Shown here piece by piece: positions 13,663 through 36,299 of a stretch of 64,000 nt of DNA. The first letter of the stretch is position 1, and every line of letters begins with the position of its first letter. The DNA is from a virus, in IMG/VR virus record IMGVR_UViG_3300037010_002844, positions 64,001-128,000 of that record; one strand, 5' to 3'. The translations under genes were made by a program, and so were the position numbers. The notes under the pieces are model-generated. The model made no database searches and was not told the origin of the DNA. It saw only the letters and a list, made by a program, of their open reading frames with translations.

Positions 13663-13842
13663 TCAAGTTCTTGTGGCAAGCGTCCATAATTGATCAAGCC
13701 TAAATTGCTTCTTCATCGCAGGTGTTAGTTCATGCTTCGCTGGGTTACTGTGCCAATAGTCGCCGTCGTACTCGATGATGAGGTTGAGTGATGGCACGAC
13801 GAAGTAGCCTGGTTTCAGTACTTCATTCCCAAAATCTCGTCT
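13663..13842 (-). pseudogene. Remnant of a Vsr-like homing endonuclease.
   Basis: My translation of a start-less open stretch is RRDFGNEVLKPGYFVVPSLNLIIEYDGDYWHSNPAKHELTPAMKKQFRLDQLWTLATRT*. The IEYDGDYWHS core matches AIECNG(V/L)YWHSE of the two intact endonucleases at 15352 and 17837. Confidence 0.6.
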
Positions 13843-14772: not shown

Positions 14773-14856
14773 ATGTTGCGGAGTCGTGGGCCTGTTGCGT
14801 CTCTGTAAGGCGACATGGCCACGGTCGCGGCGAAACCTGCGACCAAAACGCCCGCC

Positions 14857-15333
14857 TCACGTCAATCCACGAGCTTCGTAACCACTGCTAGACCCAATCA
14901 ACTCGTCGTCTTCGGTTAGGTGCTGTGCCTCAACCCACCCGCGATTCTTCGTCAAGATGGGATGATCAGCGGTGCAGACAAGCTTCTTGCCGTCGTCGAA
15001 CACGAGCTCGATGCACTCCTTGGGTCCTTGGTCGTAAACGACGTCGACGACTGATGTGGTGAACTGCTGCTTGACTTCATCGAAGACCGTCACCTCGTCA
15101 CCGACATGGACGTCCTTGATCAACTTGTACGAGTCATCGCCCATCAGCACTGCCGTGTCCTGGTCGACGCACTGGAAGATGCCTGCCCACTTGCCTTTCT
15201 CGTAGACCTCGTAAGGTTTGGGATCGGTGAAATCAATGACGGCCGGGTGCATGTGCTGCTCGAACCAGGTCTTGATGTCATTGAATGATACCGCATTTGT
15301 ATGTGCGTCAACGTTAGCAACGACTTTTGCCAT
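14857..15333 (-). CDS. dnaE: DnaE fragment 5: degenerate C-intein stub, extein, N-intein 5.
   Basis: MAKVVANVDAHTN is a decayed block-G-like stub. The extein at 15172-15294 is AVSF...DPKPYEVYEKGKWAGIFQ. N-intein 5 at 14860-15171 is CVDQDTAVLMGDD...CTADHPILTKNRGWVEAQHLTEDDEL. Confidence 0.8.
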   Translation of the reverse strand: MAKVVANVDAHTNAVSFNDIKTWFEQHMHPAVIDFTDPKPYEVYEKGKWAGIFQCVDQDTAVLMGDDSYKLIKDVHVGDEVTVFDEVKQQFTTSVVDVVYDQGPKECIELVFDDGKKLVCTADHPILTKNRGWVEAQHLTEDDELIGSSSGYEARGLT

Positions 15334-15351
15334 GTCTTTGTAAAGGTACTT

Positions 15352-17151
15352 TCACAGGTCCATAACGTACACCGCGTTGGAGCAACCAAAGATCTTAAAA
15401 AGCCTGTGTTCCATCGCCATCTCTTCTTGTGATGCGATCCCCGGAATCGCCCTGACAGCAAATCTATCGATACGATTTTGTCCGTCCGTCCACCAAAACC
15501 TAGGCTGCGTCATGTGATCAAATCTAAAACCAGATAGTTCATACGCCCGGCCAGTGCCACCCAACCTCATGTCACGGTATGTGATCATTTTTTGGTAACC
15601 ATGCTCACGTGACCAATCCCTGGCAGCGTTGATCAACCGCGACATGCCTCCAACGACGATGGTATCGCGGGCCGTTGAAACCCGCGCCAATTCAATTGTC
15701 TTAGATCCCCACTTAGTCTGCTGGTGCGGTTTTCGCAATGTCAATGCACAAATAATGTTTCCAGCAATGTCCTCTAGCCAGAACGAATGCGACGAAGGAG
15801 TGTTTCCATCGAGGTGATTGTTCGCCATGAACTGAGCGGTGATGGCTGGACGACCGCTGCGAAGATGTAGCTTTCGTGCCATCACGCGAGTAGCAAGACC
15901 AAGCTTTACCCTGATCATGCTTTTGATGATGTTTTTCTTTACATCATGGTGCCATTCATCGTCGAAGATATGTAGCAACGACACACCACGCTCAAGAGCG
16001 CGAGTCGACTTGTCTTGGTGATACGATGGTGGAGTACCGGTCGCCTCACTGTGCCAATAGACACCGTTGCACTCGATGGCAATCCTTCCGTTACCTGACA
16101 CGATGTCCAGCTCATAAGGCGCGATTGACTGTCTGTCGTTGGCGATGGCGTTCGAATCGAGCTTGACGAAGAAATCGAACACCTCACGATGCCAGCGAGA
16201 GAAATTAGCCGGGTAGCACGTTGAACACACCTTTCCCTTGTAAAGGACGTTAAAGGGAACAATATCAGGTACGTTACAACTGACGCATGTCACATGCACC
16301 GGTGTTGAGTATCCAGCAAACTCAAATTTTTCGATGTTCCACCTCGACCGCAGTGCATCAACTCGCCGTTCGACCTCTTCGAGAGACAACCGAAAAGGAG
16401 AGTTAGTGCCGTTCTCGATAAGGCGTTTTCTAGTCTCGATGATCGAACGTTTGATATCTTCAGAATTAGCGTTCCGAGACCAATGATTCAAGCGAACGCC
16501 TTCGCCGATCCGTTCTGATCGCCGTTTGATCCTATCGTCAGTTTCTGACGTCTGACCGTGCTGCGTCCAGTGTTTTTCTACTTGCCATTTTTCAGTCAAT
16601 GCTCGAGAGATGTTATGCGCAGCTCTTGTGATAGATTCATTATTTTCTTTAGTTTGTCCTGTTCTCCAGTGCCCGTGTTTTTTGATGAAATCACGACAAC
16701 CTTGTGCGGCCCTTCGAACCGATTCAGACGTTGTTTCTGACAGCCCCTTGTTCCATGCAGGCAATGATTTTGATTTCCGGCTAAGCGCACCTCTTACTTG
16801 AGAGTTCTTCTTGCTACAAACTCCACAGAGACGTTCATATCCCGTTTGAAAGGTCATGAACTTGACCGGCCCTGAACACTGAACGCACGGTCCAGGGTGC
16901 TCTCGAAAAAGAAGGTACGCAGCCTCCGCATTGAGCCCGTGCTTTTTAAGGAGATGTGCGCGGAGCGAATTTAGGCTAGCTTTTCGCAATGGATCATTGC
17001 ACTGTGGGCACCTCGAAGGACACGATGTCATCGCCGGGCCCGAGCTCCCTCGCAAGGATGGTGCCCCTGTTGCTGGTGACGATTCGTTGGTCGCCGTAGA
17101 CGCCTCGTGTCGTTCCATCGTCGAGTTGGATCTCAAACCACCCTCTTTCAT
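15352..17151 (-). mobile_element. Free-standing homing-endonuclease gene (zinc finger, NUMOD3-like repeats, Vsr-like nuclease, conserved C-terminal domain) at junction 4.
   Basis: Contains CPQCNDPL...HLLKKH, WNKGLSETTSESV and TGQTKENNESI repeats, and YELDIVSGNGRIAIECNGVYWHSE. The C-terminus is YRDMRLGGTGRAYELSGFRF...FWWTD...IFGCSNAVYVMDL. It is a paralog of 17837..19570. The true start is probably an internal Met (17118 or 17031), because the track start overlaps fragment 4. Confidence 0.75.
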
Positions 17152-17851
17152 GTCGTTCCTTTTTGATGATGAGCTCGATGGCGCGCTCGATGAGCCGCAT
17201 CGTTTCTAGACCTAGGAGGTCGTACTTGATGAACTCTCCGATCTTCTCAAGGTGTTTATAATTTACGCCCTCGACCCAAGGTGACTGTGGCTCGCGGACG
17301 CCGGCCTTGCCTTTGGACGTCACCAAAGGCATCTTGTTGGGCAAATCGTCTGCAATCAGCACACCACCCGCGTGACGACCGAGACTACGATTCTGCTTGA
17401 AGAGGATCTTGATCGACTCGGCGACGACCGGGTACTTCTCAATGAAGCCGCGAAACGACGGGCTGACCGGCTGCTTACACTCTGGGCTACAGCCCTGGCA
17501 GATGGACTTCGACTCCGGGCCCTTAGGAGCCCTGCAGTGGAAGGCCATGGCCTCATCGTAGGTCAAGACGAACAGATTCTTGTCGTCGCCTTCCTTCATC
17601 GTCGCCTTACGGACCTCGTCCTCGACGGTCCGCGTGGCAGCGTTGGTCTCCTCGAATGGGATGCCGTAGAACTTGCCGATATCCTTTACAAGCGTTTTTA
17701 GTTTGAAACAGTTATAATTGCTGATGGGAACGACGTTTTCCCACCCAAAAAAGTTTCGAAGTTCATCAAGAACCTCATCTCGCCTGGCAAGATCGGTGTT
17801 GTGAACAACGACGCTCTTGTTGGACGCCAAAAATGAATGAACGACCATCAC
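16994..17851 (-). CDS. dnaE: DnaE fragment 4: very short C-intein 3, palm/fingers extein, degenerate N-intein remnant.
   Basis: Starts MVVHSFLASNKSVVVHN (17798-17848, ATG at 17848). The extein is TDLARRDEVLDELRNFFGWENVV...SLGRHAGGVLI...IKYDLLGLETMRLIERA. The tail at 16997-17140 is WFEIQLDDGTTRGVYGDQRIVTSNRGTILARELGPGDDIVSFEVPTVQ. Confidence 0.85.
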   Translation of the reverse strand: MMVVHSFLASNKSVVVHNTDLARRDEVLDELRNFFGWENVVPISNYNCFKLKTLVKDIGKFYGIPFEETNAATRTVEDEVRKATMKEGDDKNLFVLTYDEAMAFHCRAPKGPESKSICQGCSPECKQPVSPSFRGFIEKYPVVAESIKILFKQNRSLGRHAGGVLIADDLPNKMPLVTSKGKAGVREPQSPWVEGVNYKHLEKIGEFIKYDLLGLETMRLIERAIELIIKKERHERGWFEIQLDDGTTRGVYGDQRIVTSNRGTILARELGPGDDIVSFEVPTVQ

Positions 17852-19570
17852 ATGAATCCTAACTCAACTACAGTTGAATTTACATGCGCTCGTTGTGGTC
17901 GAAACCACGAAACGCTACGAGCATTGAAGATCCACGAGGCACGACACAGGCGAGAAGACGCCAGGCCTCCCAAACAGGTGTCAACTTACGCGTGTCCGTG
18001 GTGTGAGGCGTCATATGACAGCGGGCGTAAGTTGACATTGCACTGCACAAAAACGCACCAAAAATCACCCGTCGTTGTGTATGAAACAAGGTACCCAGGG
18101 TGCAGGAAGACGTGCATCGATTGTTGCGACTGGGTCAGGTTCATCGATCAAGAAAAAGGATACCCCGAACGGTGTCCACGTTGTAGCCGAAAACACGCAT
18201 ACGCGTCCAAGGGCACCTCGTCATGGAACAAAGGCCTGACGAAAGACAATGACGAACGCATGTCAGCCAGTGCTGCAAACATGCGAGCTCACTACAAGGA
18301 ACACGGTCACCACAACTCCGACAAGACAAAGGAAAACAACGAAAGCCTTAAACAAAAGGCGGCAAAAATCAGCGACAGCCTGCGGAGGTATTATGCAACG
18401 CACAGCGGCTGGTCACTTGGCCTGACAAAGGATACGTCTAGCATCATTGAATCTCGCAGTAAGAAGATCAGCGCTTCGTTGAAAGGACGATTCTTTAGCG
18501 ACGTAACGCTTGAAAAAATGCGCAAGGCAAAGTTGCTGACGCACGACGAGGTACAAAAACGCCTCAAAGAAAAGCAGCTTAAACTCATTGACGAATATGT
18601 CGATACTGTCACCAAAGCGCGCATCGAATGCACGATATGTTCAACAATATTTGAGCGTTGCGTTGGCGCAGTGTTCAACAACGAGGCCAAGTGTCCCACC
18701 TGCTTTCCGCCTTGGTCAGACAAAACGAGCAGGTGGCAACAGGACGTCTACGCATTTATCCAGACGCTGGCACCTGACGCAGTCCTTAGCGATCGTAAGA
18801 CGCTCGGCGGAATGGAGCTCGACATACTCATTCCATCGCGCATGTTTGCCATCGAGTGCAATGGCCTATACTGGCACAGCGAGGCCGCCAATAGATTTGA
18901 GCACGATCACGCGGAAAAGAAGAGATTGCTGTCCCTCAAAGCCGGCGTATCGCTTTTCACGTTATTTGAGGATGAGTGGCGCGACAAACGACCGATAATC
19001 GAAAGCATGTTGCGCCATCGCCTTGGGTTTTCTACCAAAGTCGATGCGCGTAAGTTGAAAGCAGAACGCTGCGAGCCCGAAGAAGTTCGAGAATTCATCA
19101 ATCAGTGCCACCTCGACGGTCACGTGAGGGCCCAATTTGCCGTGCGATTGGTAACCTCATCGGGCGAAATCGTAGGCGCCTGCAGCCTTAGGTGGGCACG
19201 AAATGGGGCAGACAGAACGACGATTGAGATCGCTCGCCTGTGCTTCAAGCTTGGCACACATGTACGAGGCGGGGTGTCAAAATTGCTATCAAAGGCAAAA
19301 GCTATAGCAAGAGAAAACAATGCAGCGAGGTTGATGTCTTACTCAGACAATCGCTTGGGAGGAAACGGTTATGCCACCTCAGGCATGAAGTTCAACGGTA
19401 CCACAGTCGCTCGCTTCTGGTGGACTGACTTCATGCATCGTTACGACAGGTTCAAGTACCGAGCCAACAAGAAGCAAGGTCTAACAGAAAAACAGGTAGC
19501 GGAGGCTGCCGGCGTTTATCGCATCTATGGCTGTAGCAACTCTCGCTACGTCTTAGACGTCACAGCGTGA
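17837..19570 (+). mobile_element. Homing-endonuclease gene on the opposite strand inside the intein-3 gap (C2H2-like finger, NUMOD3-like repeats, Vsr-like nuclease, conserved C-terminal domain).
   Basis: Contains CARCGRNHETLRALKIHEARH, then WNKGLTKDNDERM and SDKTKENNESL and GLTKDTSSIIESRSKKIS, then MELDILIPSRMFAIECNGLYWHSE. The C-terminus is YSDNRLGGNGYATSGMKF...FWWTD...IYGCSNSRYVLDV. Its ATG at 17837 overlaps, head to head, the ATG at 17848 of fragment 4. Confidence 0.8.
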
Positions 19571-19872
19571 CGCTAATGTCATCGTCAAACTTTGAGGACG
19601 CATTTTCTTTGAGCCAGAAGATGGCGTCAATTGTGCGCTCGTCGGCGTCGGCGTCATCGCACGACGTAGCCCCATAGTATGGGGGCCAAATCGTGCTCAA
19701 ACCCTTTAACGCGCAGTTTGACCTGACAATCTTGAAATTCAGGATTTTCTGCAGCTCTCGTCTGAGCTATTCTTTCCAGGCCAGACACTATCACATCATC
19801 TGCTCGGCAGAATCGCCGTTGTCTGTAAGCTGCACCGCATCAACGTTGCTCGGACACGGTCCCAACTCCAGC

Positions 19873-20610
19873 TCAAATTTCATAGTTGCGCTCGCTGTGG
19901 TCTGTTCTTCTCTTAGACGCGCACCAATCGCTGCAAAAATTGTCTCCTTCGCCACACGCAAGGAACGTGCCAGGAATGACGCCCATGCAATAACCGACGT
20001 CATGTGATGGATCACCTCCACTTAGAATGGACGTATTGAACGGTACCACGTGGAATCTGTGATCGTCTTCAACAGTCAGGTCGACGTATCTAGCGTTGGA
20101 AGAGCCCCAACCACCGTGCTCGATCGATACGACCTCAACGCTGCCGCATGATGCCATCAATTCATCTCCGACCTTAAGGTCGCGGCAGTACACGATGACG
20201 CCGTCAGCTCTGACAAATTTGTGACCGGGCACCACCAAAATGTGGCCCAACGTACCATCATTGGCCCTAACTCTGACCCAGACAGCGTCCTCGAATGGCC
20301 GCAAATTTCTAGCATAGGTCGCAGTTACTGCGTGTGGCATTCCATCGCCTCCCAGGACGACGTCGCCGACAATGATGTCAACAGCTCGCTTATGAGTGCC
20401 GTCTGTCATGACGACAAGATGGTCCTCGTGGACGCAGTCGATATCAGGAGCACCAGAGTTATGTGTCAGCACCCAATCGCTATCGTTGTTGGACACCCAA
20501 AACGTATGCTGGCCTTCGACCTCGATGTCGATGAGTTCTACACTTTCATCGACAACCTCGATAGCTTCAATTTTGGCCGTGCTTGCTGATGAGATGTTGG
20601 GTTCCTGCAT
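19873..20610 (-). CDS. dnaE: DnaE fragment 3: C-intein 2, 7-aa extein, long N-intein 3.
   Basis: C-intein 2 at 20458-20610 ends ELIDIEVEGQHTFWVSNNDSDWVLTHN. The extein SGAPDID is at 20437-20457. N-intein 3 runs down from 20436 as CVHEDHLVVMTDG...VVPGHKF...ARYVDLTVEDDHRF (to about 20053). About 60 unrelated codons follow. Confidence 0.8.
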   Translation of the reverse strand: MQEPNISSASTAKIEAIEVVDESVELIDIEVEGQHTFWVSNNDSDWVLTHNSGAPDIDCVHEDHLVVMTDGTHKRAVDIIVGDVVLGGDGMPHAVTATYARNLRPFEDAVWVRVRANDGTLGHILVVPGHKFVRADGVIVYCRDLKVGDELMASCGSVEVVSIEHGGWGSSNARYVDLTVEDDHRFHVVPFNTSILSGGDPSHDVGYCMGVIPGTFLACGEGDNFCSDWCASKRRTDHSERNYEI

Positions 20611-21532
20611 AGTCCCTGTGCTCTAGATTGGCAATCGTATGGTACAAACCTTGTCGACGAAGTTCACCATAGAAGTCATTCATGTACACGACGTCGATGC
20701 GCTGACCAGACGCCACAACGACTTCCCGTGAACGTGCGTTTGAGTTAAGCAACTTTGAGAAACGCGATTTGCCTTCTCGCACACCTTTCAACTCCACGTA
20801 TCGGTCCTCATCACTGAACCAAAAGTCTGGAGTGTAACACTTCTCTTTGCCATCGATGACAACATGGAAAGACCTATGTTCATAGAATGGCATCTTACCG
20901 AGGTGCAAGCAATATCTGTAGTAGTCGGCTTCGAACGAGCTCTTGAAGTACGGGCTGTTTAGGATGTCGGAACGAAAACACGAGCGTCCGTTCACATGTG
21001 AAGCAACCATATCACGTGACTGTGCCTCGCGGGTGCACCGTTTGGAACAGAACCGCGGCACGTAGCTCTTCTTGGTGACGATCGGTTCGCTACAAACTTC
21101 GCATACCAACGTGTGGCGGTCAAACCTCGATGCAGCGAAACATTTGGGTGAACAGAACCTGCGATTGACGTTCTTCGTTGAGAAAGTGCCTAGACACTGT
21201 ACACATGTCAGTGTACGGAGCTCATTCTTTGTCAGCGCTTTCGCAGTGTACTTGTGCCTGCACGCATTCGAACATAGTTTTCTGTTGTTGTGACACTTTG
21301 GAACGTAGAACTCATCGCCGTACTCGACGCACGTCTTCACAAGCCTCGAGGGCATGGGAGCGTGTGACATCAGCTTCCTGTGAGCGACGGCACACTCATC
21401 AGTGCAGTACGGGCGATGGAGCCTACTACCAGAACCCTTGCAGTTGGGCTCATAGTTGAACTGAAACATAATACCACAGTGTTTACACTGTTTCTCAATG
21501 ATGCTCATAGTGGTACGTGTACAGCTCGTCAC
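20567..21532 (-). mobile_element. Free-standing homing-endonuclease gene in the intein-2 gap (four CxxC...FCSxxC zinc modules plus a T7 endonuclease I-like PD-(D/E)XK domain).
   Basis: The repeats are CKHCG...RPYCTDEC, CVEYG...RKLCSNAC, CVQCL...RRFCSPKC and CEVCS...PRFCSKRC. The C-terminal KCYTPDFWFSDEDRYVELKGVREGKSRFSKL matches the T7 endo I YTPDF...FVETKG core as recalled. Confidence 0.7.
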
Positions 21533-21992
21533 TCGTCGACAGCTCAGATGTATACTTCTTCACAGGTTGTCCATCAGGACCCACTGTCAACCACACATGA
21601 TTTTCAGAACACGTGAACGTAGTACCATTCACCTTCACGCGGTACGTCTTCTCATGTTTTGTGGTCATGGTGAACGTAACTTTACGGTGTGAGCCATCCT
21701 GTGAGACAACGCTGTCACCGACTTTCACGTCTCGAAGCGCGGACGACGAACCATCTGACATCAATACCTTTGTGTCTGGCGACAGACACCTGTGAACGCT
21801 AAGGAATCGCGCGAAAGGCAGGTCCCAGAACAACGGGTCCAAGTCGGTGATGTATAGGACGTAGGCGACCAGAGAGCCACCGCCCGAATTGTGGACTGCA
21901 ATACCTTCCACGTTGTAAGTGTGGCTGTTTTCCACACACAGGTCTACGACCTCACCCTTATACGGTACGACAGTCTTACTTCTGAGCTTCAT
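21495..21992 (-). CDS. dnaE: DnaE fragment 2: C-intein 1, 33-aa extein, N-intein 2.
   Basis: C-intein 1 at 21888-21992 is [35 protein letters not shown]. The extein at 21789-21887 is [33 protein letters not shown], matching the DnaE GSAAGSLVAY..ITDIDP..FERFLNPER region. N-intein 2 at 21498-21788 is [13 protein letters not shown]...CSENHVW. Confidence 0.85.
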
Positions 21993-22076
21993 GATATGCG
22001 TTCGCTCTCTTCATGTAAGCCTTGAGATCCCTGTCTAATAGACATTTGACGAGGATCAGGTAAACTTAGTTGAGTT

Positions 22077-23762
22077 TCATTCAACCTCGATTAGGTCATC
22101 ATCTTCAGTCAAGTGTTGTGCTTCAATCCACCCACGATTCTTCGTCAGAAACTTATGCTCCTTGGTGCACCTGATCTTCTTACCGTCATCAAACTCGAGT
22201 TCTAGCAGCTCCTCATCAACCTGATACCTGAAGATCTGAGTCACCATCTGATCAACACCATATGCATCCTTGATAACGTCGCCCACCTTGATGGTGCCAA
22301 TGGGAGCATGCATGCCGTCAGCCATTAGAACCCGCGTCTCAGGAACGAAACAACCGCGGGCTGGGCCGGTAAGGCACACATTGCGTGCCAGCTCCATGAT
22401 CTTCTGGTAGGAAATGAAGTAGTCAGAGTTTTTCATCACCTTAATGACGCCGAGTTCCTCCTTGAGGCGCGCGATATACTCTGGCTTGTCTTGAAGACCA
22501 CGCTTCACCATGCCCACCTTACAAAGCGAGATGAGGTGATTGAACGAGGTCGTGCCTTCGGGCACCAACAACCTCGTCGGAAACTTGGGCGAACGATCGG
22601 GTGGAATCTCCCCGATGACACTGTGTGCGATATCGTGAGTCCGCTCAATGGCGTCACAGACGACTTCATCGTCATACCAGTCGGTGCCTTCCTTGGAGCG
22701 CTGGTACTCATCCCACATCTGTTGGGCGTTCTTCGGATAGAGCTCACACTTCAGCTCATCCTTCGACTTCGGAATCGCGTCAGGATTGATCTCCTGGTAG
22801 TTCATCCAACCCAGGCGCTTGTAGAGCTCACGGTCCTTCCAACGATCGGGATTATAGTAGTGAGCATCGCCGGTGACGATCAGCTGCTTGTTGAGCCCAT
22901 TGCGACGAGCGAACTCCAGGATCGCGCGGTTGACGAGGTTCTGCGCCGGTAGGCGATTGAACTGCAGCTCGAGGAAGTAGTTTCCTTCGCCGACTGCATC
23001 GACCATGTGCTGGTAGGTATTGCCCACCGCGACAACGCATTTCTCGAGCAGCACAGGGTCACTGAGCAACCGTGCGTCGAGCTCGTCAAACTTGTACTGT
23101 TGGATTTCCTGGAATATGGAGTACGCCGGCATGCCGCCGATACAAGCGCTGCTGACGATGATGTCGCCGCCTTTGGCTGCCTCTTTGAGGACAGCATGGT
23201 CAATGCGCGGGAACTTGTAGAAGCCCTTCAAGAATCCCTTCGAACATGCTGCGAAGATCGCCAACAGGCCCTTCTGGTTCTTGGGCAGAATGACTAGGTG
23301 ATGCCGTCGGTTGACGGGATTGAAGTGTTTGGTCGATTTGGACTCTTCCTCGTTTTCGACAGTCAAGGCGTTGGACATCTCAATGTCCTCAGTCTCATCA
23401 TTTTCATCGATGGTGGCGATGATCTTGGTCTGCAGCTTTTCCTGCTCCTTAGCAAGCTTGGCCGCAACCCTCCTGTCTCCCTTCGCCTGCTCTGCGAGTT
23501 CGACGTCCTTCTTCCATTGCTCCAGGTCGGGATGGTAGTACGCCTCGACGCCGGGAATGTACTTGAACGACTTTCCCTTATTGGCCTTGGCCCACTCCTC
23601 GACCCACAGTTGAGCGTGGGCATAGGAGTTCATGTTCCCGTGCTCGGTGATGGCATGGCCATCGAGCCCGTTCTCCATGCACCACTTGAAGTGTTCATCG
23701 GGATAGCCCAAACCATCGAAGGGCGCATTACGAGAAGCCCGTGTGGTTGTGCAAACCGACAA
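22077..23762 (-). CDS. dnaE: DnaE fragment 1: PHP and N-terminal half, plus N-intein 1.
   Basis: Contains FDGLGYPDEHFKWCMENGLDGHAITEHGNMNSYAHAQ (PHP) and ends ...CLTGPARG, followed by N-intein 1 at 22080-22352 (CFVPETRVLMADG...CTKEHKFLTKNRGWIEAQHLTEDDDLIEVE*). The track start (TTG 23762) is an artefact. The real N-terminus is in another frame (see 23728..23820). Confidence 0.85.
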   Translation of the reverse strand: MSVCTTTRASRNAPFDGLGYPDEHFKWCMENGLDGHAITEHGNMNSYAHAQLWVEEWAKANKGKSFKYIPGVEAYYHPDLEQWKKDVELAEQAKGDRRVAAKLAKEQEKLQTKIIATIDENDETEDIEMSNALTVENEEESKSTKHFNPVNRRHHLVILPKNQKGLLAIFAACSKGFLKGFYKFPRIDHAVLKEAAKGGDIIVSSACIGGMPAYSIFQEIQQYKFDELDARLLSDPVLLEKCVVAVGNTYQHMVDAVGEGNYFLELQFNRLPAQNLVNRAILEFARRNGLNKQLIVTGDAHYYNPDRWKDRELYKRLGWMNYQEINPDAIPKSKDELKCELYPKNAQQMWDEYQRSKEGTDWYDDEVVCDAIERTHDIAHSVIGEIPPDRSPKFPTRLLVPEGTTSFNHLISLCKVGMVKRGLQDKPEYIARLKEELGVIKVMKNSDYFISYQKIMELARNVCLTGPARGCFVPETRVLMADGMHAPIGTIKVGDVIKDAYGVDQMVTQIFRYQVDEELLELEFDDGKKIRCTKEHKFLTKNRGWIEAQHLTEDDDLIEVE

Positions 23763-23820
23763 ATCGTCGGGGCACTCGCACCGAGCTTCCCTTGGCGTCC
23801 TCCTTTCCTTGCTGCGTCAT
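23728..23820 (-). other. dnaE: True 5' end of dnaE (PHP motif I), out of frame with the rest of fragment 1.
   Basis: ATG 23820-23818 (ATGA overlap with the upstream stop) gives MTQQGKEDAKGSSVRVPRRFVGLHNHTGFS, then TAA at 23730-23728. Removing one base in tcg-t-aat would read ...GFSNAPFDGLGYPDEH, the canonical PHP HxH...DG continuation. Confidence 0.7.
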
Positions 23821-24137
23821 TTACCTTCCCACCTTACCTTGTCACGGTACTGTAGACCCAATTGACGGTACTGGACACCGTCAATGACCACGATAGTCAC
23901 TTCAGGAAACTTGATTCGCATCAGTGCAAGCTGATAGCACGCCTTGTCAGACCACCTTCCCTTAATTTCGTAGTACACGCTTTCATCGTGAACGAAAATC
24001 TGGTGTGTACCAAGCCGGCCATGTCGGCGATCTGCGGCAACGTGGCCATACCAATGGGTATCAGCACGCGGAGCCACTTGGGCAGCTTGTTCCAGGTGGG
24101 CTTCAGCTGGGTGACGAGCTATGAAACAACGATGCAA
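23817..24137 (-). CDS. Small T7 endonuclease I-like protein, probably a degenerate homing-endonuclease remnant.
   Basis: THQIFVHDESVYYEIKGRWSDKACYQLALMRIKFPEVTIVVIDG parallels YTPDF...FVETKGLWESDDRKK...HPELDIRIVF. The PD aspartate position is not conserved. Confidence 0.45.
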   Translation of the reverse strand: MHRCFIARHPAEAHLEQAAQVAPRADTHWYGHVAADRRHGRLGTHQIFVHDESVYYEIKGRWSDKACYQLALMRIKFPEVTIVVIDGVQYRQLGLQYRDKVRWEGK

Positions 24138-24211
24138 CCAGCGGCAACCTCGGCAGCAATGTCTGCAAGAACCATGTCGTCATGGTAAACCGGAAGCGAT
24201 CAGTTTTACAT

Positions 24212-25234
24212 CTAGGCGATGACCTTCCGGAAGTAATCGATGGAACGTTTGAGGCCTTCTGCGAGCTGCACCTTGGGCTCCCACCCTAGACGATTCTGGG
24301 CTTGGGTGATGTCGGGCCGACGCTGCGTCGGGTCATCGACAGGCAGCGGTTTGTAGTCAAACCAACGGGCCACATCGCGGTGAGGTGCCTCGCGCCCACC
24401 GTAGATTTGGTGAATGACCTCCTTCGCCAACTGATTCATCGTGAACTCGTGCGGGTTGCCGAGGTTGATGGGCATCCGCGGGTTGTTGCCCAGATCGCCC
24501 AAGGTCACAATGCCTTTGATCAGGTCGTCCACGTAACAAAAGCTACGTGTCTGTTGACCGTCACCGTAGATCGTCAACTTCTCGCCCTTCAAGGCCTGGA
24601 CGATGAAATTGCTGACGACCCGGCCATCGTATGGGTCCATGTGCGGACCGTAGGTGTTGAAGATCCGGACCATGCGAGCGTCGACACCGTGGGTATGTAG
24701 GTAGTCATAGCACAGGGCCTCTGCCGCACGTTTTCCCTCGTCGTAACAGGCTCTGGGCCCGTAGGAGTTGACGCGACCTCGGTATGACTCGACCTGCGGC
24801 GAACTCTCGGGATCACCATAGACCTCAGAAGTCGAAGCGTGGACCACGATCGATCCATGCGATGCCGCCAGTTCCAGGACGTTCTGGACGCCTAGCGTAC
24901 AGGTCATCATGGTCTCCACGGGCATGCGCTGGTAGATGGGCGGCGATGCTGGGCAGGCGAAGTTGTAGATGATGTCGAAGCGTACCGAGTGCATCGACCC
25001 GGTGTCGTAATCGTGAATCACGCGACTAAAGCGACTGTCTCCATGGACGTCAGCGATATCGCAGTACATCAACGTCGCCAGCGGAAACTTCTTGATCTCA
25101 TCGACCTGAATCGACTCCGGCTTCGACGAACAGAAATTGTCGAGGCCGAGGACCTTGTCACCCGCCCTCAAGTGATGTAGCATCAAGTGCGAACCCAGAA
25201 AACCAGCGGCTCCCGTGACGAGGACAGTCTTCAT
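24212..25234 (-). CDS. UDP-glucuronate decarboxylase (UDP-xylose synthase)-like extended SDR.
   Basis: VLVTGAAGFLGSHL, then ASTSEVYGDPESSPQVESYRGRVNSYGPRACYDEGKRAAEALCYDY. This closely matches the UXS signature ASTSEVYGDP...GPRACYDEGKR as I recall it. Confidence 0.85.
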   Translation of the reverse strand: MKTVLVTGAAGFLGSHLMLHHLRAGDKVLGLDNFCSSKPESIQVDEIKKFPLATLMYCDIADVHGDSRFSRVIHDYDTGSMHSVRFDIIYNFACPASPPIYQRMPVETMMTCTLGVQNVLELAASHGSIVVHASTSEVYGDPESSPQVESYRGRVNSYGPRACYDEGKRAAEALCYDYLHTHGVDARMVRIFNTYGPHMDPYDGRVVSNFIVQALKGEKLTIYGDGQQTRSFCYVDDLIKGIVTLGDLGNNPRMPINLGNPHEFTMNQLAKEVIHQIYGGREAPHRDVARWFDYKPLPVDDPTQRRPDITQAQNRLGWEPKVQLAEGLKRSIDYFRKVIA

Positions 25235-25243
25235 GCGTCCATT

Positions 25244-25585
25244 CTATCCAATCGTCACGTGCTCTACACTGCCTTTACGCGGGTAGCTTTCGAGATACGC
25301 AATCAACAAGCGTCTTGACACGGGCTCCCAATCAATGCCGGCGCTTCCGCGAGACATTTCGTCGAACCAAAACTGAAAGACGTCGGAGACCATTTGAACC
25401 GCAATGGGCGTTGCTTCCTCGGCATCTGCGAGTTGAAAACCCGCCTCGTTGAAGCGCGCCAGGATTGACAACGCCTCACTCTCGTACTCGTCATCGTGCG
25501 GAGAGTGAAGACCCATCGGATCGACCTCGTAGAGGATTGTAGCCATCTCAATGAGGAGTTCTGCTTTGCTCTTCGCCTTGTCCAT
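25244..25585 (-). CDS. Hypothetical acidic protein.
   Basis: 113-aa ORF. No motif recognised. Confidence 0.5.
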   Translation of the reverse strand: MDKAKSKAELLIEMATILYEVDPMGLHSPHDDEYESEALSILARFNEAGFQLADAEEATPIAVQMVSDVFQFWFDEMSRGSAGIDWEPVSRRLLIAYLESYPRKGSVEHVTIG

Positions 25586-28332: not shown

Positions 28333-28860
28333 TCAGCCTTGAGGAAGGAACATCTCCCAATCGGGATGCCAATCATTGCCCTTTGCGACGTCCCAGAAGT
28401 GCAATGGAGACGGCTCCATTGGAGCCTTTCGCAAAGGCATGCCGGCCTCGACGGGCGTCTTGTTGGCCTTCTTCTTGTTGCATGGTTTACAAGAAGCCAC
28501 GCAATTCTTCCAACTCGTCCCGCCGCCACGCGACTTGGGCTGCACGTGGTCGATCGTCACATTGCTCCAGTGAAGCGGCGCATGACAGTACTGACACTGC
28601 CAATTGTCGCGGTTGAAGAGGACCTTCTTCCGGAAACGCGGAACCTTCCAGCGCTTGTGAACGCGCTCAAGAACGCGGATCGTGGCAGGCACGTCCCAAG
28701 TACGTCCAGGACTCGTCAGCTGTTCACCTTCCCAGATGGAAGGCTTACCACTGAGATCGACGATCTCGGCGATGCCCTTGTAGACCATGATAAATGCTTC
28801 CACGTCCGATAGGAAATGGAGCGGCGAGTAGTCGGCGTTGAGTAGAAGGGCTCTCTTCAT
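28333..28860 (-). CDS. HNH endonuclease.
   Basis: DNWQCQYCHAPLHWSNVTIDHVQPKSRGGGTSWKNCVASCKPCNKKKANK. I placed the start at the internal Met (MKRALLLNADYSPL), which is typical for this family. Confidence 0.85.
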   Translation of the reverse strand: MKRALLLNADYSPLHFLSDVEAFIMVYKGIAEIVDLSGKPSIWEGEQLTSPGRTWDVPATIRVLERVHKRWKVPRFRKKVLFNRDNWQCQYCHAPLHWSNVTIDHVQPKSRGGGTSWKNCVASCKPCNKKKANKTPVEAGMPLRKAPMEPSPLHFWDVAKGNDWHPDWEMFLPQG

Positions 28861-28961
28861 GAGAAACCTCGTAGGACCACTATAACTAGTCGTGACCAAG
28901 AATTGCATCGTCCGTGCTCTTTGTTGAGCACTGAACGATTCAACAGCGATTTACGCAGGCC

Positions 28962-29933
28962 TTAGCGCGCCATCGCAAAGTCGAAGCTGACGTGTCCAAC
29001 GTCAGCATCAATCTCACACTGCGCGCCGATCGGTACCGGCCCGGTCAGCGGCCCATGTGAGAATGGGTAACCATACGTGCAGGGAGGACCATTTCGAAAG
29101 TACTCCTCGATCGAGTTTTCAATGGACGGTTCACGTTCCTCAGTCCGCTTAGGGACCTCGGCAAATTCTCCGATGACGATGCCATTGACCATGTTCAACA
29201 TGCCCGAAAGACGCATGTGAAGGAACTCGCGGCCGAGAATCTCACCGCTCTTGTGGACGTCTTCGATGAAAAGGATCGTGCCCGTAAGTTCAGGCATGTA
29301 CGGCGTCCCGAGCAGGTGCACGAAGGTGTCAGCGTTTCCACCAATCACGTTACCAGTGGCCTTGCCAGGGCACACGGTCCTCGGAAAATATTCAGAAAAA
29401 TCAAAGGGTTGAGTTCCCCAAGGCTCGTCAGACATCATCAGGCGCAACGTCAATCGAAACGAGTCGGAATCGGCTCGGCGAATGGCCTCGCCCTTATCGA
29501 GACGAATCGACGGCGATTGACCGTTGATAGAGATGAGCCCGGCACGGGCCAGGATGCCCGCATTCAACGCCGTGATGTCAGACATGCCCAACAGGGCCTT
29601 TCTCGAGGCTCGAATCATTCGATAGTCGAGATAGGGAAGGATTGCAGCTGAACCCATGCCGCCGCAAACGGCGAGCACGCCGTTGATGCTTGGGTCCGAA
29701 AATGCCCAATTGAGCTCTGCGGCGCGATCTGCAAGACTGCCCGCGTGGATGTTGTCGCTGCGTAGGTTGCGAACGCAGGGACCCAAGACAGGAACGAGTC
29801 CCATCTCACGCATGATATCCATGCCCTCCGTCACCTCATCCGTCTTGAACGGCGAGGCCGGAGCCACTAGCGCGATCTTGGCGCCTCTACGCAGTTTCCG
29901 GGGCGTCAGGTACATCGACTTTAAGTATGTCAA
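28962..29933 (-). CDS. LD-carboxypeptidase (peptidase S66, MccF/LdcA-like).
   Basis: AKIALVAPASPF, nucleophile motif LLGMSDITALN, then ILFIEDVHKSGE and YPFSHGP (Ser-Glu-His triad context). Confidence 0.8.
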   Translation of the reverse strand: MTYLKSMYLTPRKLRRGAKIALVAPASPFKTDEVTEGMDIMREMGLVPVLGPCVRNLRSDNIHAGSLADRAAELNWAFSDPSINGVLAVCGGMGSAAILPYLDYRMIRASRKALLGMSDITALNAGILARAGLISINGQSPSIRLDKGEAIRRADSDSFRLTLRLMMSDEPWGTQPFDFSEYFPRTVCPGKATGNVIGGNADTFVHLLGTPYMPELTGTILFIEDVHKSGEILGREFLHMRLSGMLNMVNGIVIGEFAEVPKRTEEREPSIENSIEEYFRNGPPCTYGYPFSHGPLTGPVPIGAQCEIDADVGHVSFDFAMAR

Positions 29934-29937
29934 AACA

Positions 29938-31098
29938 TCAATTCAAATCCGTCTCGACCTGTGACTTGGGATTCGTAAGCTTCTCAATTGTCGGCTGCAG
30001 CGACGCCGAGGTCCGCCTGTACAATTCCTTCATCGGGTAATTGTAGGCCTCAGGCGGGTAGTACATGCTGAGTTTCATCAGGTTTTCAGACGAGAAGCAT
30101 CGCATGATCGGATGCAGGTAGTTGAAGATGAAATCGTATGGCTTCCGCGGCGGTGCATTCTCACGGTAAACCGGAGCATAACCGCCGGCCTCGATATCCT
30201 GGATCACCTGATCGATGTTGTCGTTCAACATCTGCAGGCTAGCGGGCGTCAGGCCGTTGTCGTACCCGTGCTTCTTGACCCACTTGGCCAACCGTGACAT
30301 CATGTAGTTTTGCTTCCAGGTGTGAATGTGAATCATCTTGTTCTGGAAGAGCCACTCCCACCCCTCGGGAATGAAAAGTTGGTCATTGACGATGTAACAG
30401 GCGGCGTTGTAAATGTCAAAGCCGTCCACGATCTCTTCTGGAGATCCGAGGAACTTGGTAATCGTCTGCACCAACTGCCCATCCAATCCGCCCTGAGCAA
30501 AGCAGATGAACTCTTCACCAAAGCCGGCTGGGGTGATGTTGTTGACGATGCGTGCAGGCTCGAGGTATTGCGGCGACTGCTTGACCTCGAACAGGAATGT
30601 CTCCAGGCAGTAGCGATTCCGGAACCAGACATCGATGTCACCCATGTTCTTCTTCCAGAAGTGCCTTGTCTGGTGAATGTTGTTGAAGTCGAGCCCGGCT
30701 GAGCCCATCCCGATGCCCATGTAACGCTTCAACTCATTGATGACTGGTCGCTCGGACATCTCGTATGTCTCGATGGGTCGATCGTACCATTGGCACGAAG
30801 ACACTAGGGACTTCTCGCTTGCCGCGACCTTGAGGTAACTGAACGGATCATCTGTACCAAGGTGGACTGCGGCCCGCTTAATGCCCGCCGCGATCAACTC
30901 TTTGTTGGTCTTCAACCAGTGCTCTGGTCCACCATGAACCAGCTGCATCGAGGCGATCTTAGTCGCAAATCCACCAGCAATGAAGCCACCGTGCTCGTGC
31001 ACCTTGCCCAACAGCCAACTCGTGCGTTCATTCAGAACGCCTGCGTTATAGAGCAGTTCGACGATCGGCGCTTTGAACGTCAAGGCATGGTGTTGCAT
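29938..31098 (-). CDS. Hypothetical protein.
   Basis: 386-aa ORF. GGFIAGGFA ... GDIDVWF segments are noted but not assignable. Confidence 0.55.
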   Translation of the reverse strand: MQHHALTFKAPIVELLYNAGVLNERTSWLLGKVHEHGGFIAGGFATKIASMQLVHGGPEHWLKTNKELIAAGIKRAAVHLGTDDPFSYLKVAASEKSLVSSCQWYDRPIETYEMSERPVINELKRYMGIGMGSAGLDFNNIHQTRHFWKKNMGDIDVWFRNRYCLETFLFEVKQSPQYLEPARIVNNITPAGFGEEFICFAQGGLDGQLVQTITKFLGSPEEIVDGFDIYNAACYIVNDQLFIPEGWEWLFQNKMIHIHTWKQNYMMSRLAKWVKKHGYDNGLTPASLQMLNDNIDQVIQDIEAGGYAPVYRENAPPRKPYDFIFNYLHPIMRCFSSENLMKLSMYYPPEAYNYPMKELYRRTSASLQPTIEKLTNPKSQVETDLN

Positions 31099-31124
31099 GC
31101 CTACATACTACCAAGCTTTATACT

Positions 31125-31907
31125 TTAAGTACAAATATAGTGGACACTCAACGCATCTAGCCGAGCCTTTGTTATTGCGATTGCCTGCGGGTTGGCATCA
31201 CCTACTACGAACTGACGACCAAGACCCGCGCTCGCCACGGCAGTTGTTCCCGATCCGCAGAAAGGATCGAGGACTGTTCCTTCCGGCGGTGAAGACGCCA
31301 GAATCGCTCGCTCGATCAACTTGACGGGTTTCTGATTTGGATAACCCGTGCGTTCCTTGGACGCGGTTCCCACGATCGACATCCACCACACGTCGGTCGG
31401 CACCTTTCCAGCAGCGGCCCGTGCCGGGTCCTTCTGAAGCCCCGGTGCCATGTACGGAATGCGATCGATGTCGTTCCAATTGAAGACGTGCTTGCCACGT
31501 TCCTTGGCATAGACCAGGATCGTATCATGTTTAGCGGGCCAGCGATCCTTGCCGCGGCCTCCGAAATCATAGGCCCAGATGACCTCGTTCAGGAAGTTAT
31601 CCCGCGTGAAGATCTTATCGAGCTCCACCTTGGCATAATGAACCCAACGAGGGTCCAGGTGCAAGTAGAGAGTTCCTGTCGGTTTCAAGACCCTGTGTAG
31701 GGCCGCCAGATGAGGCACGAGAAAACCCACGTAATCCTCAAACCTGTCACTATAGCCCATTTCCGGGAATACTTGATCGCCCACGCGTCTTTGAGCCCGC
31801 TGGACGGTGCCGGTTCCAAAAGGTGGATCGGTATAGACCAGATCGATGCTCTCCTCGGGCAGCGACTGGATCACAGAAAAGGCATCGGCCAGATGAACAC
31901 TGTTCAC
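31125..31907 (-). CDS. DNA methyltransferase (beta-class N6-adenine/N4-cytosine).
   Basis: IDLVYTDPPFGTG (DPPF catalytic motif) at the N-terminus and VLDPFCGSGTTAVAS (SAM motif I) at the C-terminus. GTG start. Confidence 0.85.
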   Translation of the reverse strand: MNSVHLADAFSVIQSLPEESIDLVYTDPPFGTGTVQRAQRRVGDQVFPEMGYSDRFEDYVGFLVPHLAALHRVLKPTGTLYLHLDPRWVHYAKVELDKIFTRDNFLNEVIWAYDFGGRGKDRWPAKHDTILVYAKERGKHVFNWNDIDRIPYMAPGLQKDPARAAAGKVPTDVWWMSIVGTASKERTGYPNQKPVKLIERAILASSPPEGTVLDPFCGSGTTAVASAGLGRQFVVGDANPQAIAITKARLDALSVHYICT

Positions 31908-32286
31908 TGGCCGATCTTACTACGATGACGTCGCCATGATAGGTCGCATTGAGAGTAGCATCACCCTCTATCGTAGCCCCAGCGACTTTGGTCTTTGCCA
32001 TCGAGAGCATCGAGCAGCATGTCGACCTTTTCAGTTCGGCCTCAAGGACCCGCAATGGCTTCAGTCGCTCGAGCAGATCCTTCTTTTGGCGAGGAGGAAG
32101 TCCCTGGTTGATATTGGATCCACGTTGGCATCAGCGATATTGATCGCCTTCGCGGTCGTAGGGTTGACCGGCGGCTTCCGGGAAGGTGACGGTGATCTGT
32201 TTAGCTTCGTACACCTGGTTGGGGTTTGACTTGATGATCACCGTCACCTCAACTTCGCATGTGACCTCTAGCTTGTGATGGTTGGC

Positions 32287-32305
32287 GGCCCACTCTCAGT
32301 GGGCC
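32287..32305 (-). terminator. Stem-loop just downstream of the stop of gene 32315..32623.
   Basis: GGCCCAC-tctca-GTGGGCC, a 7-bp perfect stem. No U-tract follows, so terminator function is uncertain. Confidence 0.3.
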
Positions 32306-32314
32306 TCGACCACC

Positions 32315-32623
32315 TCATCGCGAGTCAGCTTCACGATCACTGCGCCCCAGCTGCTCCAGGCGGTGCTTGATGTGATCAATGGCGTTCACGGCCTGCTCAT
32401 CATCGCGGCCAGCTGCGATCAAACGTCTGACCATCTTCGCCGTCTTCTCGGGCTTCCACTTGCGAGTGATCTTGCGCTTCATCAGCGCCTCCAATCGAGC
32501 TCGACGTGGGCCAGCGTAGGCGTGCTGGTTCTCGAACGTCTTGAGAACCTTCTTGAGGTGCTCAGCATTCTCTTCGATTTCCTTGACTTCTTCTTCCGTG
32601 ACGGGTGCTGTCTTGGTATCCAT
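32315..32623 (-). CDS. Hypothetical basic/acidic helical protein.
   Basis: 102-aa ORF. No motif recognised. Confidence 0.5.
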   Translation of the reverse strand: MDTKTAPVTEEEVKEIEENAEHLKKVLKTFENQHAYAGPRRARLEALMKRKITRKWKPEKTAKMVRRLIAAGRDDEQAVNAIDHIKHRLEQLGRSDREADSR

Positions 32624-32635
32624 GTGTCCTCTGCT

Positions 32636-33427
32636 TCAGGATACAACGGGCGGTGGCTCGTTTACACGGAGGCGTTTCACCATGTCATCAAAGATCGTTG
32701 GGTCACTTTCGACCAACGCGAACCTACGACCGAGCTTTCGCGCCGCGAAGCCCGTGACGCCTGAGCCCGCGAAGGGATCGATGATCCACTCGCCTGGGTC
32801 TGTGTGAACCTCAATCATGACCTCGTGAAGGCGTTGAACCTTCTCCGTCGGGTGGACCTTGCCCCGCATCAATTCTGTGATGTCAGTCCAGACGTTGGAG
32901 CGTCGATAGAACTCGCTTTTGGCCGGATACTTCGCATTGTAGCCCGCATAACCACGCTTCTCATCCAAGAGAGGCACATGGAACTTTCTAGGCTTCTTCA
33001 TGGGACCCTTGACGAAGTAAGCAAGCTCCTCGCGAGTAAAAAGGTAGTTCCACTGCACGCCGTAGGCACGGCGCTTCTTCCAGGTGATCAGGTTCGCCAG
33101 CTCAAATTGGTCCTTGATCTCCACGTCGCACAGGTAGCGCATGAACGGCCTGAAGCTCGGCTGCCCAATGCCACCCCAGACGTAGAACGCGCCCCCATCG
33201 TGAAGTGCGTGGGTCGTCCAACGCAGCGTCCAATCGATCATCCACGATGCAAATGCCTTATCGGATTGTTGAACGCGGTCCCACTTTTCACGGACCACGT
33301 TTCCGTATGGCGGATCCGCAATGATCAAACCGACCTTCCCGGTGGCCTCGACCGTCGCCAGGACGGTCACGAGGTCGGTACAGTCGGCTTGAATTGCTAG
33401 GCCGTCCGTGAACTTTTCGATTTTCAT
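32636..33427 (-). CDS. DNA methyltransferase (N6-adenine type, DPPY).
   Basis: GLIIADPPYGNV and IIDPFAGSGVTGFAARKLGRRF. Confidence 0.85.
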   Translation of the reverse strand: MKIEKFTDGLAIQADCTDLVTVLATVEATGKVGLIIADPPYGNVVREKWDRVQQSDKAFASWMIDWTLRWTTHALHDGGAFYVWGGIGQPSFRPFMRYLCDVEIKDQFELANLITWKKRRAYGVQWNYLFTREELAYFVKGPMKKPRKFHVPLLDEKRGYAGYNAKYPAKSEFYRRSNVWTDITELMRGKVHPTEKVQRLHEVMIEVHTDPGEWIIDPFAGSGVTGFAARKLGRRFALVESDPTIFDDMVKRLRVNEPPPVVS

Positions 33428-34558: not shown

Positions 34559-35104
34559 TCAGAGCTTGAAGCGACAGACATTGGCCACGTACTGTCGCAC
34601 GTCGTCGAACGTCTTTCCGTTCCCGTAACGTCTGCACAGGTGCGTCAGATACTGCGGGTACTTGCCGTTCTCCCACTTCTCCGCGTTCCAGGCGATGGCC
34701 CGATCAAGTTCCTCGAGGTCAGCCACGAGCAACAGCGAATAGTCAGCCGACTCGCAGACGTACTGCGCGACGGGGCCGGGGAGCAGTGCAAGCATCGACA
34801 GGTAGCAATCGCGGTAGTGCCGCGCATCGAACATGTAACACTCGTCGATGAATTGTTGGTCAGGGTCGCCAGTGTGCCCCGTCTTCAACCAACGTTCTGT
34901 GACGAGAGCTTGATCAGCCAACGTGCAGTAGATTCGAATGTCTGCGAACTTGACCTTGTGCTGGTAGACCATAATGGTCGACGTCCACGGTTGCGTCCCG
35001 TCAGTGTACCACGAGCCATTGCACCGCGGCACGGGATACCGCAGCGCGGCTCCGATGAACCGGGCCACATCGTTGAGGTTGGGTTCCTGCTTGTTCTTCA
35101 TCAC
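34559..35104 (-). CDS. Hypothetical protein.
   Basis: 181-aa ORF. No motif recognised. Confidence 0.5.
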   Translation of the reverse strand: MMKNKQEPNLNDVARFIGAALRYPVPRCNGSWYTDGTQPWTSTIMVYQHKVKFADIRIYCTLADQALVTERWLKTGHTGDPDQQFIDECYMFDARHYRDCYLSMLALLPGPVAQYVCESADYSLLLVADLEELDRAIAWNAEKWENGKYPQYLTHLCRRYGNGKTFDDVRQYVANVCRFKL

Positions 35105-36269: not shown

Positions 36270-36299
36270 GTTACAATTCTATTCCACTGAATCGTGAAG

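Follow-up and report, generated by a model that had tools for sequence, protein, structure and literature searches.

Why does a huge phage carry a gene resembling those for UDP-glucuronate decarboxylases, and on what would the resulting pentose be placed? The question is raised by a minus-strand open reading frame (ORF) at 24212..25234 of a 64,000-nucleotide stretch of viral DNA (positions 64,001 to 128,000 of the IMG/VR record IMGVR_UViG_3300037010_002844), which is called the window hereafter. The ORF, 340 amino acids from an ATG start to its stop codon, very likely encodes an active UDP-glucuronate decarboxylase producing UDP-xylose (UDP-xylose synthase, UXS), as judged from the comparisons described below. 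The enzyme itself is a new addition to a known family; UXS joined to a module for glycosylation of 5-hydroxymethylcytosine (hmC) in a clade of huge phages is a new version of a known type of system.

Coating cytosines with sugars is a major means by which phages escape from restriction enzymes, CRISPR nucleases and DNA glycosylases; the set of defences that succeed shifts with every new sugar. Known logics for the sugar donor are the use of host UDP-glucose, as in T4, a donor tailored by an epimerase, and arabinose derived from ribulose-5-phosphate, as in RB69. If the UDP-xylose were used for DNA, it would represent a third donor-making logic, from UDP-glucose through UDP-glucuronate to UDP-xylose, and the first decarboxylase-tailored sugar nucleotide feeding DNA modification, in a DNA hypermodification not yet described. 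A new modified base would be predicted, and an unannotated glycosyltransferase family of 415 members would be given a function. If the xylose goes elsewhere, the gene would be no more than an auxiliary sugar-nucleotide gene of an ordinary kind, carried by a huge phage.

Identity of the ORF as UDP-xylose synthase

The product of the ORF, obtained identically from independent gene calls on the Logan and JGI assemblies, is covered over its full length by the Pfam models GDP_Man_Dehyd and Epimerase from the superfamily of extended short-chain dehydrogenases/reductases (SDRs), and has the N-terminal GxxGxxG NAD-binding motif as GAAGFLG at residues 8-14. In a phmmer search against all PDB sequences, the top match is human UXS1 (hUXS1; E=4.5e-83, 282 bits), with 52% identity across 257 aligned columns. 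Scores for the other families are far lower: 116 bits for GalE-like proteins, 81 for UDP-apiose/xylose synthase (UAXS), 79 for RmlB and 59 for ArnA. Uxs encoded on pSymB of Sinorhizobium meliloti is likewise 52% identical to it, along the whole length (E=4e-116).

The active site of UXS consists of the SDR triad, Thr118/Tyr147/Lys151, and the UXS-specific residues Ser119, Glu120 and Arg277 (hUXS1 numbering); in UDP-glucuronate (UDP-GlcA) 4-epimerases, Glu120 and Arg277 are replaced by Ser and Thr, respectively (Eixelsberger et al., PMC3438964). All of these residues have counterparts in the phage protein, where T135, S136, E137, Y164, K168 and R305 correspond to T118, S119, E120, Y147, K151 and R277 of hUXS1. 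They are found in the motifs ASTSEVYGDP (residues 133-142), ACYDEGKR (around Y164/K168, with YDEGK at 164-168) and DDPTQRRPD, which holds R305. The six signature residues are invariant in 121 sequences, namely in the query and in the 120 homologues closest to it. In a fold search with an AlphaFold (AF2) model of the protein (pLDDT 87.5), the first 13 PDB matches are UXS1 structures, and the sole low-confidence stretch of the model is the loop that closes on the substrate in UXS1. The phage protein is thus alike to hUXS1 and S. meliloti Uxs in identity, superfamily, cofactor motif, catalytic and UXS-specific residues and predicted fold. It differs from them in an 18-residue insertion after the second beta-strand, the length of which varies across the phage clade, and in being encoded in the replication/DNA-modification region of a huge phage.

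No NCBIfam equivalog passes for the ORF, the best, RmlB, reaching 117 bits where the cut-off is 365, so that the naming as UXS rests on the PDB and S. meliloti comparisons; the PHROGs label is 'nucleotide-sugar epimerase' only. These two results would favour a reading in which the ORF encodes no decarboxylase and is instead a dTDP-glucose 4,6-dehydratase, a 4-epimerase or an ArnA-like UDP-4-keto-pentose synthase. Such a reading is extremely improbable, given the score with hUXS1 against at most 116 bits with any other solved family, the Ser-Glu pair and the Arg which are replaced in epimerases, the identity to S. meliloti Uxs and the first place of UXS1 in the fold search. RmlB, ArnA, UAXS and epimerase identities were ruled out by the scores and the signature residues. 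The original prediction had assigned the ORF to the UXS clade from its motifs, and this assignment is borne out: score comparison, signature residues and fold matches all place the protein away from RmlB and other non-decarboxylating SDRs.

A cytosine hydroxymethylase and a predicted glycosylation module

The left end of the window contains the 5′ part (84 codons, 254..3) of a gene for a T4-type dCMP hydroxymethylase, which starts from a TTG at 254 and runs past the edge (1..254, minus strand). Loci reaching past this edge were retrieved via the 445-amino-acid ORF at 2554..3891, and in one of them the full gene is a ThyA-family gene of 219 amino acids (L003:13638-14297), to the N-terminus of which the window translation is equal. 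The gene directly follows an epimerase gene at 440..1399. Its product matches T4 gp42 in PDB with E=8e-76, as compared with 4e-13 for the best thymidylate synthase. Among the diagnostic residues of ThyA homologues, in E. coli numbering, N177D indicates cytosine specificity, an acidic residue at L143 indicates hydroxymethylation, and D169N marks 5-hydroxy-dCMP synthases, a newly found group (Lee et al., NAR 2026, PMC13326640). The phage protein reads SDFIC...MRSNDVVFGYKND, having the catalytic Cys, L143D, the retained D169 and N177D, and this signature is that of a T4-type 5-hydroxymethyl-dCMP synthase, not that of a 5-hydroxy-dCMP synthase. Because ThyX is also encoded by the phage, its thymidylate synthase is not this gene's product. 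The DNA of this phage very probably contains hmC.

Genes for pyrimidine metabolism accompany the hydroxymethylase: ThyX, a Tmk-like kinase, thymidine kinase and dCMP deaminase are encoded at 42267..43031 and 41677..42258 (the latter Tmk-like) of the window and at L003:15867-16442 and 17982-18437. Such a full pyrimidine toolkit is consistent with re-routing of dCMP. As a candidate for a gp56-like dCTPase, the visible sequence offers only a generic HD-domain protein (54622..55209), which has no PDB match.

The 445-amino-acid ORF (2554..3891, minus strand), designated GT445, is a candidate DNA hmC glycosyltransferase. No Pfam or PHROG model, no PDB sequence and, by tblastn, none of 50,697 phage records matches it, and it has no sequence similarity with T4's alpha- and beta-glucosyltransferases. 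The GT-B fold is evident from structure prediction only: the high-confidence model resembles GT4 enzymes and phage DNA glycosyltransferases, and is closer to GT4 enzymes than to the T4 alpha-glucosyltransferase. The family comprises 415 homologues at 57-67% identity. The second SDR named in the original prediction is real, too; it is a nucleotide-sugar 4-epimerase of 319 amino acids (440..1399, minus strand; Pfam Epimerase, 6e-51). Its PDB matches are a B. pertussis capsule protein (9pmn/10ke; 186 bits), WbgU (169), PelX (164) and WbpP (154), and its top NCBIfam models, TviC and GalE, are both below their cut-offs (153 against 262 for GalE). Ser/Thr at the positions of UXS Glu120/Arg277 are not decisive for its substrate. 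Judged from these scores, the epimerase appears closest to 4-epimerases for UDP-N-acetylglucosamine (UDP-GlcNAc) and its uronate form (UDP-GlcNAcA).

Upstream of GT445, a P-loop kinase-like protein of 179 amino acids (4855..5394, minus strand; AAA_28 with E=2.6e-5, below the Pfam cut-off) is a candidate hydroxymethyl-dCMP/dNMP kinase. It has no PDB sequence match and no similarity to the T4 kinase, gp1, of which it is not a homologue. In locus L022, its homologue directly adjoins the hydroxymethylase gene, whose neighbours there gave no PDB match. Between the glycosyltransferase and the epimerase, the window has a protein of 264 amino acids (1432..2226, minus strand) with no family match and with homologues only in L010, L023/L093, L025 and L101.

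The arrangement was surveyed in 30 IMG/VR loci picked via GT445, about 24 of which are distinct. The epimerase comes after GT445 in 28 of the 30 loci, as does the ThyA-family gene, the two exceptions for the latter being truncated contigs, and the 179-amino-acid P-loop protein is found upstream of GT445 in 29. The cytosine-hydroxymethylase signature is present in every ThyA-family gene of these loci, in a short T4-like subfamily as well as in a long one of 330-360 amino acids, and Asp is kept at position 169 in all 34 clade genes examined, none of which has D169N.

Experiments with phage clusters in which a glycosyltransferase is paired with a neighbouring epimerase have demonstrated glycosylation of 5hmC that depends on the epimerase, yielding hexose, N-acetylhexosamine or hexuronate adducts (Burke et al., bioRxiv 10.1101/2023.12.21.572611). 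By its predicted enzymes, the left end of the window is a ThyA-based version of this known type of hmC-glycosylation module. As in the 'subclass II' clusters of that study, a glycosyltransferase and an SDR epimerase adjoin the hmC-forming enzyme; in those clusters hmC is formed after replication by a methyltransferase and a TET-like dioxygenase, whereas here a ThyA homologue would form it at the level of the nucleotide. The paper makes no mention of a decarboxylase, xylose or pentose (bioRxiv 10.1101/2023.12.21.572611). T4 relies on host UDP-glucose and encodes no sugar-nucleotide enzymes, whereas this phage brings the epimerase and UXS in addition. From the adjacency of the hydroxymethylase and by analogy with the published glycosyltransferase-epimerase pairs, we infer that GT445 acts on hmC in DNA.

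Conserved position of the UXS gene

The closest homologues of the UXS (54-65% identity) are from the same phage clade and not from bacteria. In 24 of the 80 viral UXS loci, including all of those at 54% identity or above, the gene has a fixed position in the conserved order p383 - Dps-like - p113 - UXS - (DnaJ/WGR) - DnaE - ... - kinase - glycosyltransferase - epimerase - hydroxymethylase. The distance from UXS to the glycosyltransferase is about 6-9.5 kb in relatives with an intact DnaE gene, and is 20 kb in the window, where it is stretched by inteins and homing-endonuclease ORFs. UXS belongs to the replication/DNA-modification region, not to the structural genes.

Directly upstream of UXS, across a 9-base gap, is the gene for p113, a conserved protein of 113 amino acids (25244..25585, minus strand) having no Pfam or PHROG match; a homologue with 35-48% identity is located directly upstream of UXS in most of the syntenic loci. 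On the other side, a gap of about 530 bases without a called gene (23679..24211) extends from the UXS stop to the DnaE start, at which relatives hold the DnaJ/WGR-domain gene. A promoter/terminator scan around UXS gave no signal above chance.

Destination of the UDP-xylose

A scheme for the use of the pentose can be drawn from these parts, the enzyme families and the conserved arrangement of which are observed; the enzyme activities, DNA as the acceptor and the placement of the sugar we infer. During infection, UXS would oxidise host UDP-glucuronate at C4 with its bound NAD+, and would then decarboxylate it and reduce the 4-keto-pentose to give UDP-xylose. This enzymatic step, predicted from the signature residues, is well supported. 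The phage would swap cytosine for hmC by means of the T4-type dCMP hydroxymethylase and the kinase, and GT445, aided by the adjacent 4-epimerase, would glycosylate hmC after replication. UDP-xylose would be a phage-made donor for the DNA glycan, either directly, as a second sugar, or after epimerisation, and the pentose-bearing hmC would shield the DNA from host nucleases.

Because UXS shares a conserved block with the hydroxymethylase, the glycosyltransferase and the epimerase, the pentose is plausibly destined for phage DNA. We give about an even chance to its ending on hmC of the phage DNA, via the GT-B transferase or another partner. The original prediction thus holds in part: its idea of DNA decoration gains support that was not visible to it, from the T4-type hydroxymethylase and the GT-B glycosyltransferase beside an epimerase in a conserved module, and loses the arabinose step, which is treated below.

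Several observations weigh against this destination. DnaE separates UXS from the glycosyltransferase, the epimerase and the hydroxymethylase, by 20 kb here, and UXS being thus not adjacent to the module, the synteny may reflect descent and not function. In four more distant relatives (L105, L108, L117 and L122), glycosyltransferase, epimerase and hydroxymethylase are kept, and UXS is absent from the 4-6 kb that precede DnaE on its upstream side. The UXS gene of Aphanizomenon 'phage' Yong-DA is found among polysaccharide genes, namely those for Wzy, Wzc, a glycosyltransferase and UDP-glucose dehydrogenase (Ugd). Furthermore, no Ugd gene was found in the window or in 10 kb past either edge (about 84 kb seen), nor in any of the clade loci; among 125 loci, only the cultured Pseudomonas phage QdP_Psa3 and Yong-DA have one. 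The pathway would consequently depend on host UDP-GlcA. The resemblance of the epimerase to UDP-GlcNAc(A) 4-epimerases means that the donor of GT445 may be a hexosamine or a uronate, by which UXS would be left without an identified transferase, and a profile search detected no second GT445-like gene.

The first three of these points also speak for a different use of the product, in which UXS is an auxiliary metabolic gene whose UDP-xylose goes into some glycan not on DNA, for instance on a virion protein or in a remodelled host surface polysaccharide, and the gene order is simply inherited. GT2 and GT17 transferases, which adjoin UXS in other viral loci, are in line with it. Against such a use, UXS of the clade is located in a region of replication and nucleotide metabolism, away from the tail and baseplate genes past the right edge, no GT-A, GT2 or polysaccharide gene is found near UXS in the window, and in QdP_Psa3 the UXS and Ugd genes are tied to those of a pyrimidine hydroxymethylase and a kinase. 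All things considered, this alternative is unlikely, with an appreciable weight nevertheless.

An unrelated UXS cluster in phage QdP_Psa3

QdP_Psa3 (L123, PV055685.1) is an unrelated phage of 115 kb in which genes for a ThyA-like protein, an HD/YfbR-like phosphohydrolase, an AAA_28/dNK kinase, UXS and UDP-glucose dehydrogenase are clustered at 2691..11540, within 11.5 kb. Its UXS is 43% identical to that of the window, with the signature residues present. The ThyA-like protein, of 357 amino acids, is acidic at L143 and keeps Asn at the N177 position; its substrate is thus probably dUMP, suggesting 5-hydroxymethyluracil (hmU). The cluster is alike to the window in having a ThyA-like hydroxymethylase, an AAA_28-type kinase and UXS within a few kb, and differs from it in its own Ugd and in having no homologue of GT445 or of the 440..1399 epimerase in the region examined. 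To judge from this analogy, the grouping would have arisen independently of the clade and offers independent support for a link of UXS to DNA. The single paper found in the searchable literature that mentions QdP_Psa3 reports no study of DNA modification. QdP_Psa3-like phages are available in culture. A homologue of Acb3, a CBASS inhibitor, is also encoded near the cluster.

The same cluster bears on yet another possibility, that UXS is a metabolic sink or regulator which drains UDP-glucuronate, or inhibits Ugd via UDP-xylose, with no xylose-bearing glycan made by the phage. UDP-xylose is an established inhibitor of UDP-glucose dehydrogenase, and neither a phage Ugd nor a xylose-specific transferase was identified, as this possibility would have it. 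The strict conservation of the catalytic residues of UXS fits either role, and QdP_Psa3, encoding both Ugd and UXS, builds flux to UDP-xylose instead of draining it. A sink or regulator is highly improbable, and the purpose that it could have, the shutdown of host synthesis of capsule, exopolysaccharide or 4-amino-4-deoxy-L-arabinose (Ara4N), is given an equally small likelihood.

To return to DNA glycosylation as the use of UDP-xylose, a wider form of this reading is put forward tentatively, with a likelihood somewhat short of even: in the clade and, separately, in QdP_Psa3-like phages, UXS-made UDP-xylose may be the donor for glycosylation of hydroxymethyl-pyrimidines in DNA. The product under that reading, possible rather than probable, would be xylosyl-hmC, or another UXS-derived pentosyl-hmC or pentosyl-hmU, installed by GT445. 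In the searchable literature, no paper was found on xylosyl-hmC or on phage DNA-modification clusters that include a decarboxylase.

The epimerase and the arabinose route

Could the pentose instead be arabinose? In the linear route of the original prediction, UXS would make UDP-xylose, the 440..1399 epimerase would convert it to UDP-L-arabinose, and the glycosyltransferase would form arabinosyl-hmC, by the logic of Uxs and Uxe in S. meliloti. Both UXS and a 4-epimerase-type SDR are indeed conserved in the clade, and the epimerase adjoins the glycosyltransferase. In S. meliloti, a GalE-type gene comes directly after uxs, and a glycosyltransferase gene after that, an order which the phage UXS does not share. 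Uxe is a characterised UDP-xylose 4-epimerase (cited in PMC6024577), and the GalE-type gene after uxs is taken as Uxe by its position.

The phage epimerase has 31% identity (111 bits) to this Uxe-position protein, a similarity no greater than that to generic GalE, and is thus not a Uxe orthologue; its scores are higher with the UDP-GlcNAc/GlcNAcA 4-epimerases. The epimerase and the glycosyltransferase persist in loci without a syntenic UXS. Furthermore, the epimerase and UXS genes are separated by 23 kb in the window and by 8 kb or more in relatives, whereas the S. meliloti genes abut. UDP-GlcNAc, UDP-GlcNAcA, UDP-Glc or UDP-GlcA would be at least as likely as UDP-xylose to be the substrate, as far as the sequence tells. 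The step from UDP-xylose to UDP-arabinose is accordingly not upheld for this protein.

The precedent to which the original prediction appealed, arabinosyl-hmC in phage RB69, is outdated. DNA of RB69 and DLP3 is now reported to have arabinosylated 5-hydroxycytosine, not hmC, and its NDP-arabinose is proposed to be derived from ribulose-5-phosphate via arabinose-5-phosphate, without UXS or Uxe. A Uxs/Uxe route for RB69 was formerly proposed, in a 2018 paper, as a hypothesis only. In RB69, DLP3 and HY126, 5-hydroxycytosine is made by a flavin-dependent ThyA homologue with D169N, a position at which Asp is kept here, and the route via UXS would start at UDP-GlcA. In general scans of the window ORFs, no domains of arabinose-5-phosphate isomerase or nucleotidyltransferase were seen, no targeted search having been made. 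The known arabinosylation of DNA thus concerns another pathway and another base, and the linear route to arabinosyl-hmC is rather improbable. In Shewanella phage Thanatos, cytosine bears a deoxypentose, and a UDP-xylose pyrophosphorylase, an enzyme other than UXS, is present.

UXS in other viral loci

Neighbourhoods of the other viral UXS genes were represented by 85 neighbours from 21 of 28 other non-redundant loci. A TET-associated glycosyltransferase is one of the 85; the locus that carries it was not located among ten proteins tried. In several of these other viral loci, UXS is found among replication genes. 2OG-Fe(II) oxygenases are frequent beside UXS in the non-syntenic loci. A second viral group (L036, L037, L042, L046, L050, L058, L060 and L063) has UXS proteins 49-52% identical to that of the window, with a conserved protein of about 350 amino acids encoded near UXS, mostly one gene downstream. 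One member of this protein family (L036:6032-7192), scanned alone, has no Pfam match.

The phage and the other genes of the window

The source is an uncultured huge myovirus without a close cultured relative. Megablast of 10 kb against the 50,697 phage records gave no match, RecA has no cultured relative above 43% identity by tblastn, and proteins of the window are also found on contigs of up to 309 kb. The phage origin assumed in the original prediction agrees with the gene content, which includes replication and nucleotide-metabolism genes inside the window and T4-like baseplate and tail-tube genes immediately past its right edge. Replication genes in the window encode DnaE, DnaB, FEN, RecA, SSB and a PolA-like protein, and further genes encode an intein-containing ribonucleotide reductase, ThyX, the Tmk-like kinase and an HNH endonuclease.

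DnaE (DNA polymerase III alpha subunit; 13815..23762, minus strand) is riddled with inteins and split by them and by HNH endonuclease ORFs, its matches to PHP, DNA_pol3_alpha, finger, Intein_splicing and Hint being spread over several ORFs. In relatives, DnaE is a single intact gene of 1207-1238 amino acids, by which UXS comes to lie about 7.5-9 kb from the glycosyltransferase there, and the invasion of this one gene by inteins and homing endonucleases is unusually heavy in the window. Among the DnaE pieces are also large ORFs without an assigned function (599 and 577 amino acids) and HNH/homing-endonuclease-like ORFs. The large subunit of class I ribonucleotide reductase (44405..48046, minus strand; 1213 amino acids) has an Intein_splicing match over residues 305-653.

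Between UXS and a set of RNA-repair genes, the minus strand at 28333..33427 encodes an HNH endonuclease, an LD-carboxypeptidase (Peptidase_S66), a protein of 386 amino acids with a weak Gad2 match and two N6/N4 DNA methyltransferases, the last of which suggest an additional layer of DNA modification. The RNA-repair set at 35101..39718 consists of RNA ligase, polynucleotide kinase-phosphatase (PNKP) and an RlaP nucleotidyltransferase. No tRNA genes were found in the window. Just past the left edge, a split CCA-adding enzyme is encoded in an RNA-repair region (L003:16458-17982), and a protein of 181 amino acids with a proteasome-subunit (HslV-like) domain (L003:15309-15854) adjoins thymidine kinase.

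The long plus-strand ORFs at 5243..6097 and 9999..11330 are probably spurious, since gene calls on the source contigs place minus-strand genes there, namely those for the 179-amino-acid kinase-like protein and a protein of 189 amino acids, and the C-terminal HHH_6 piece of DnaE.

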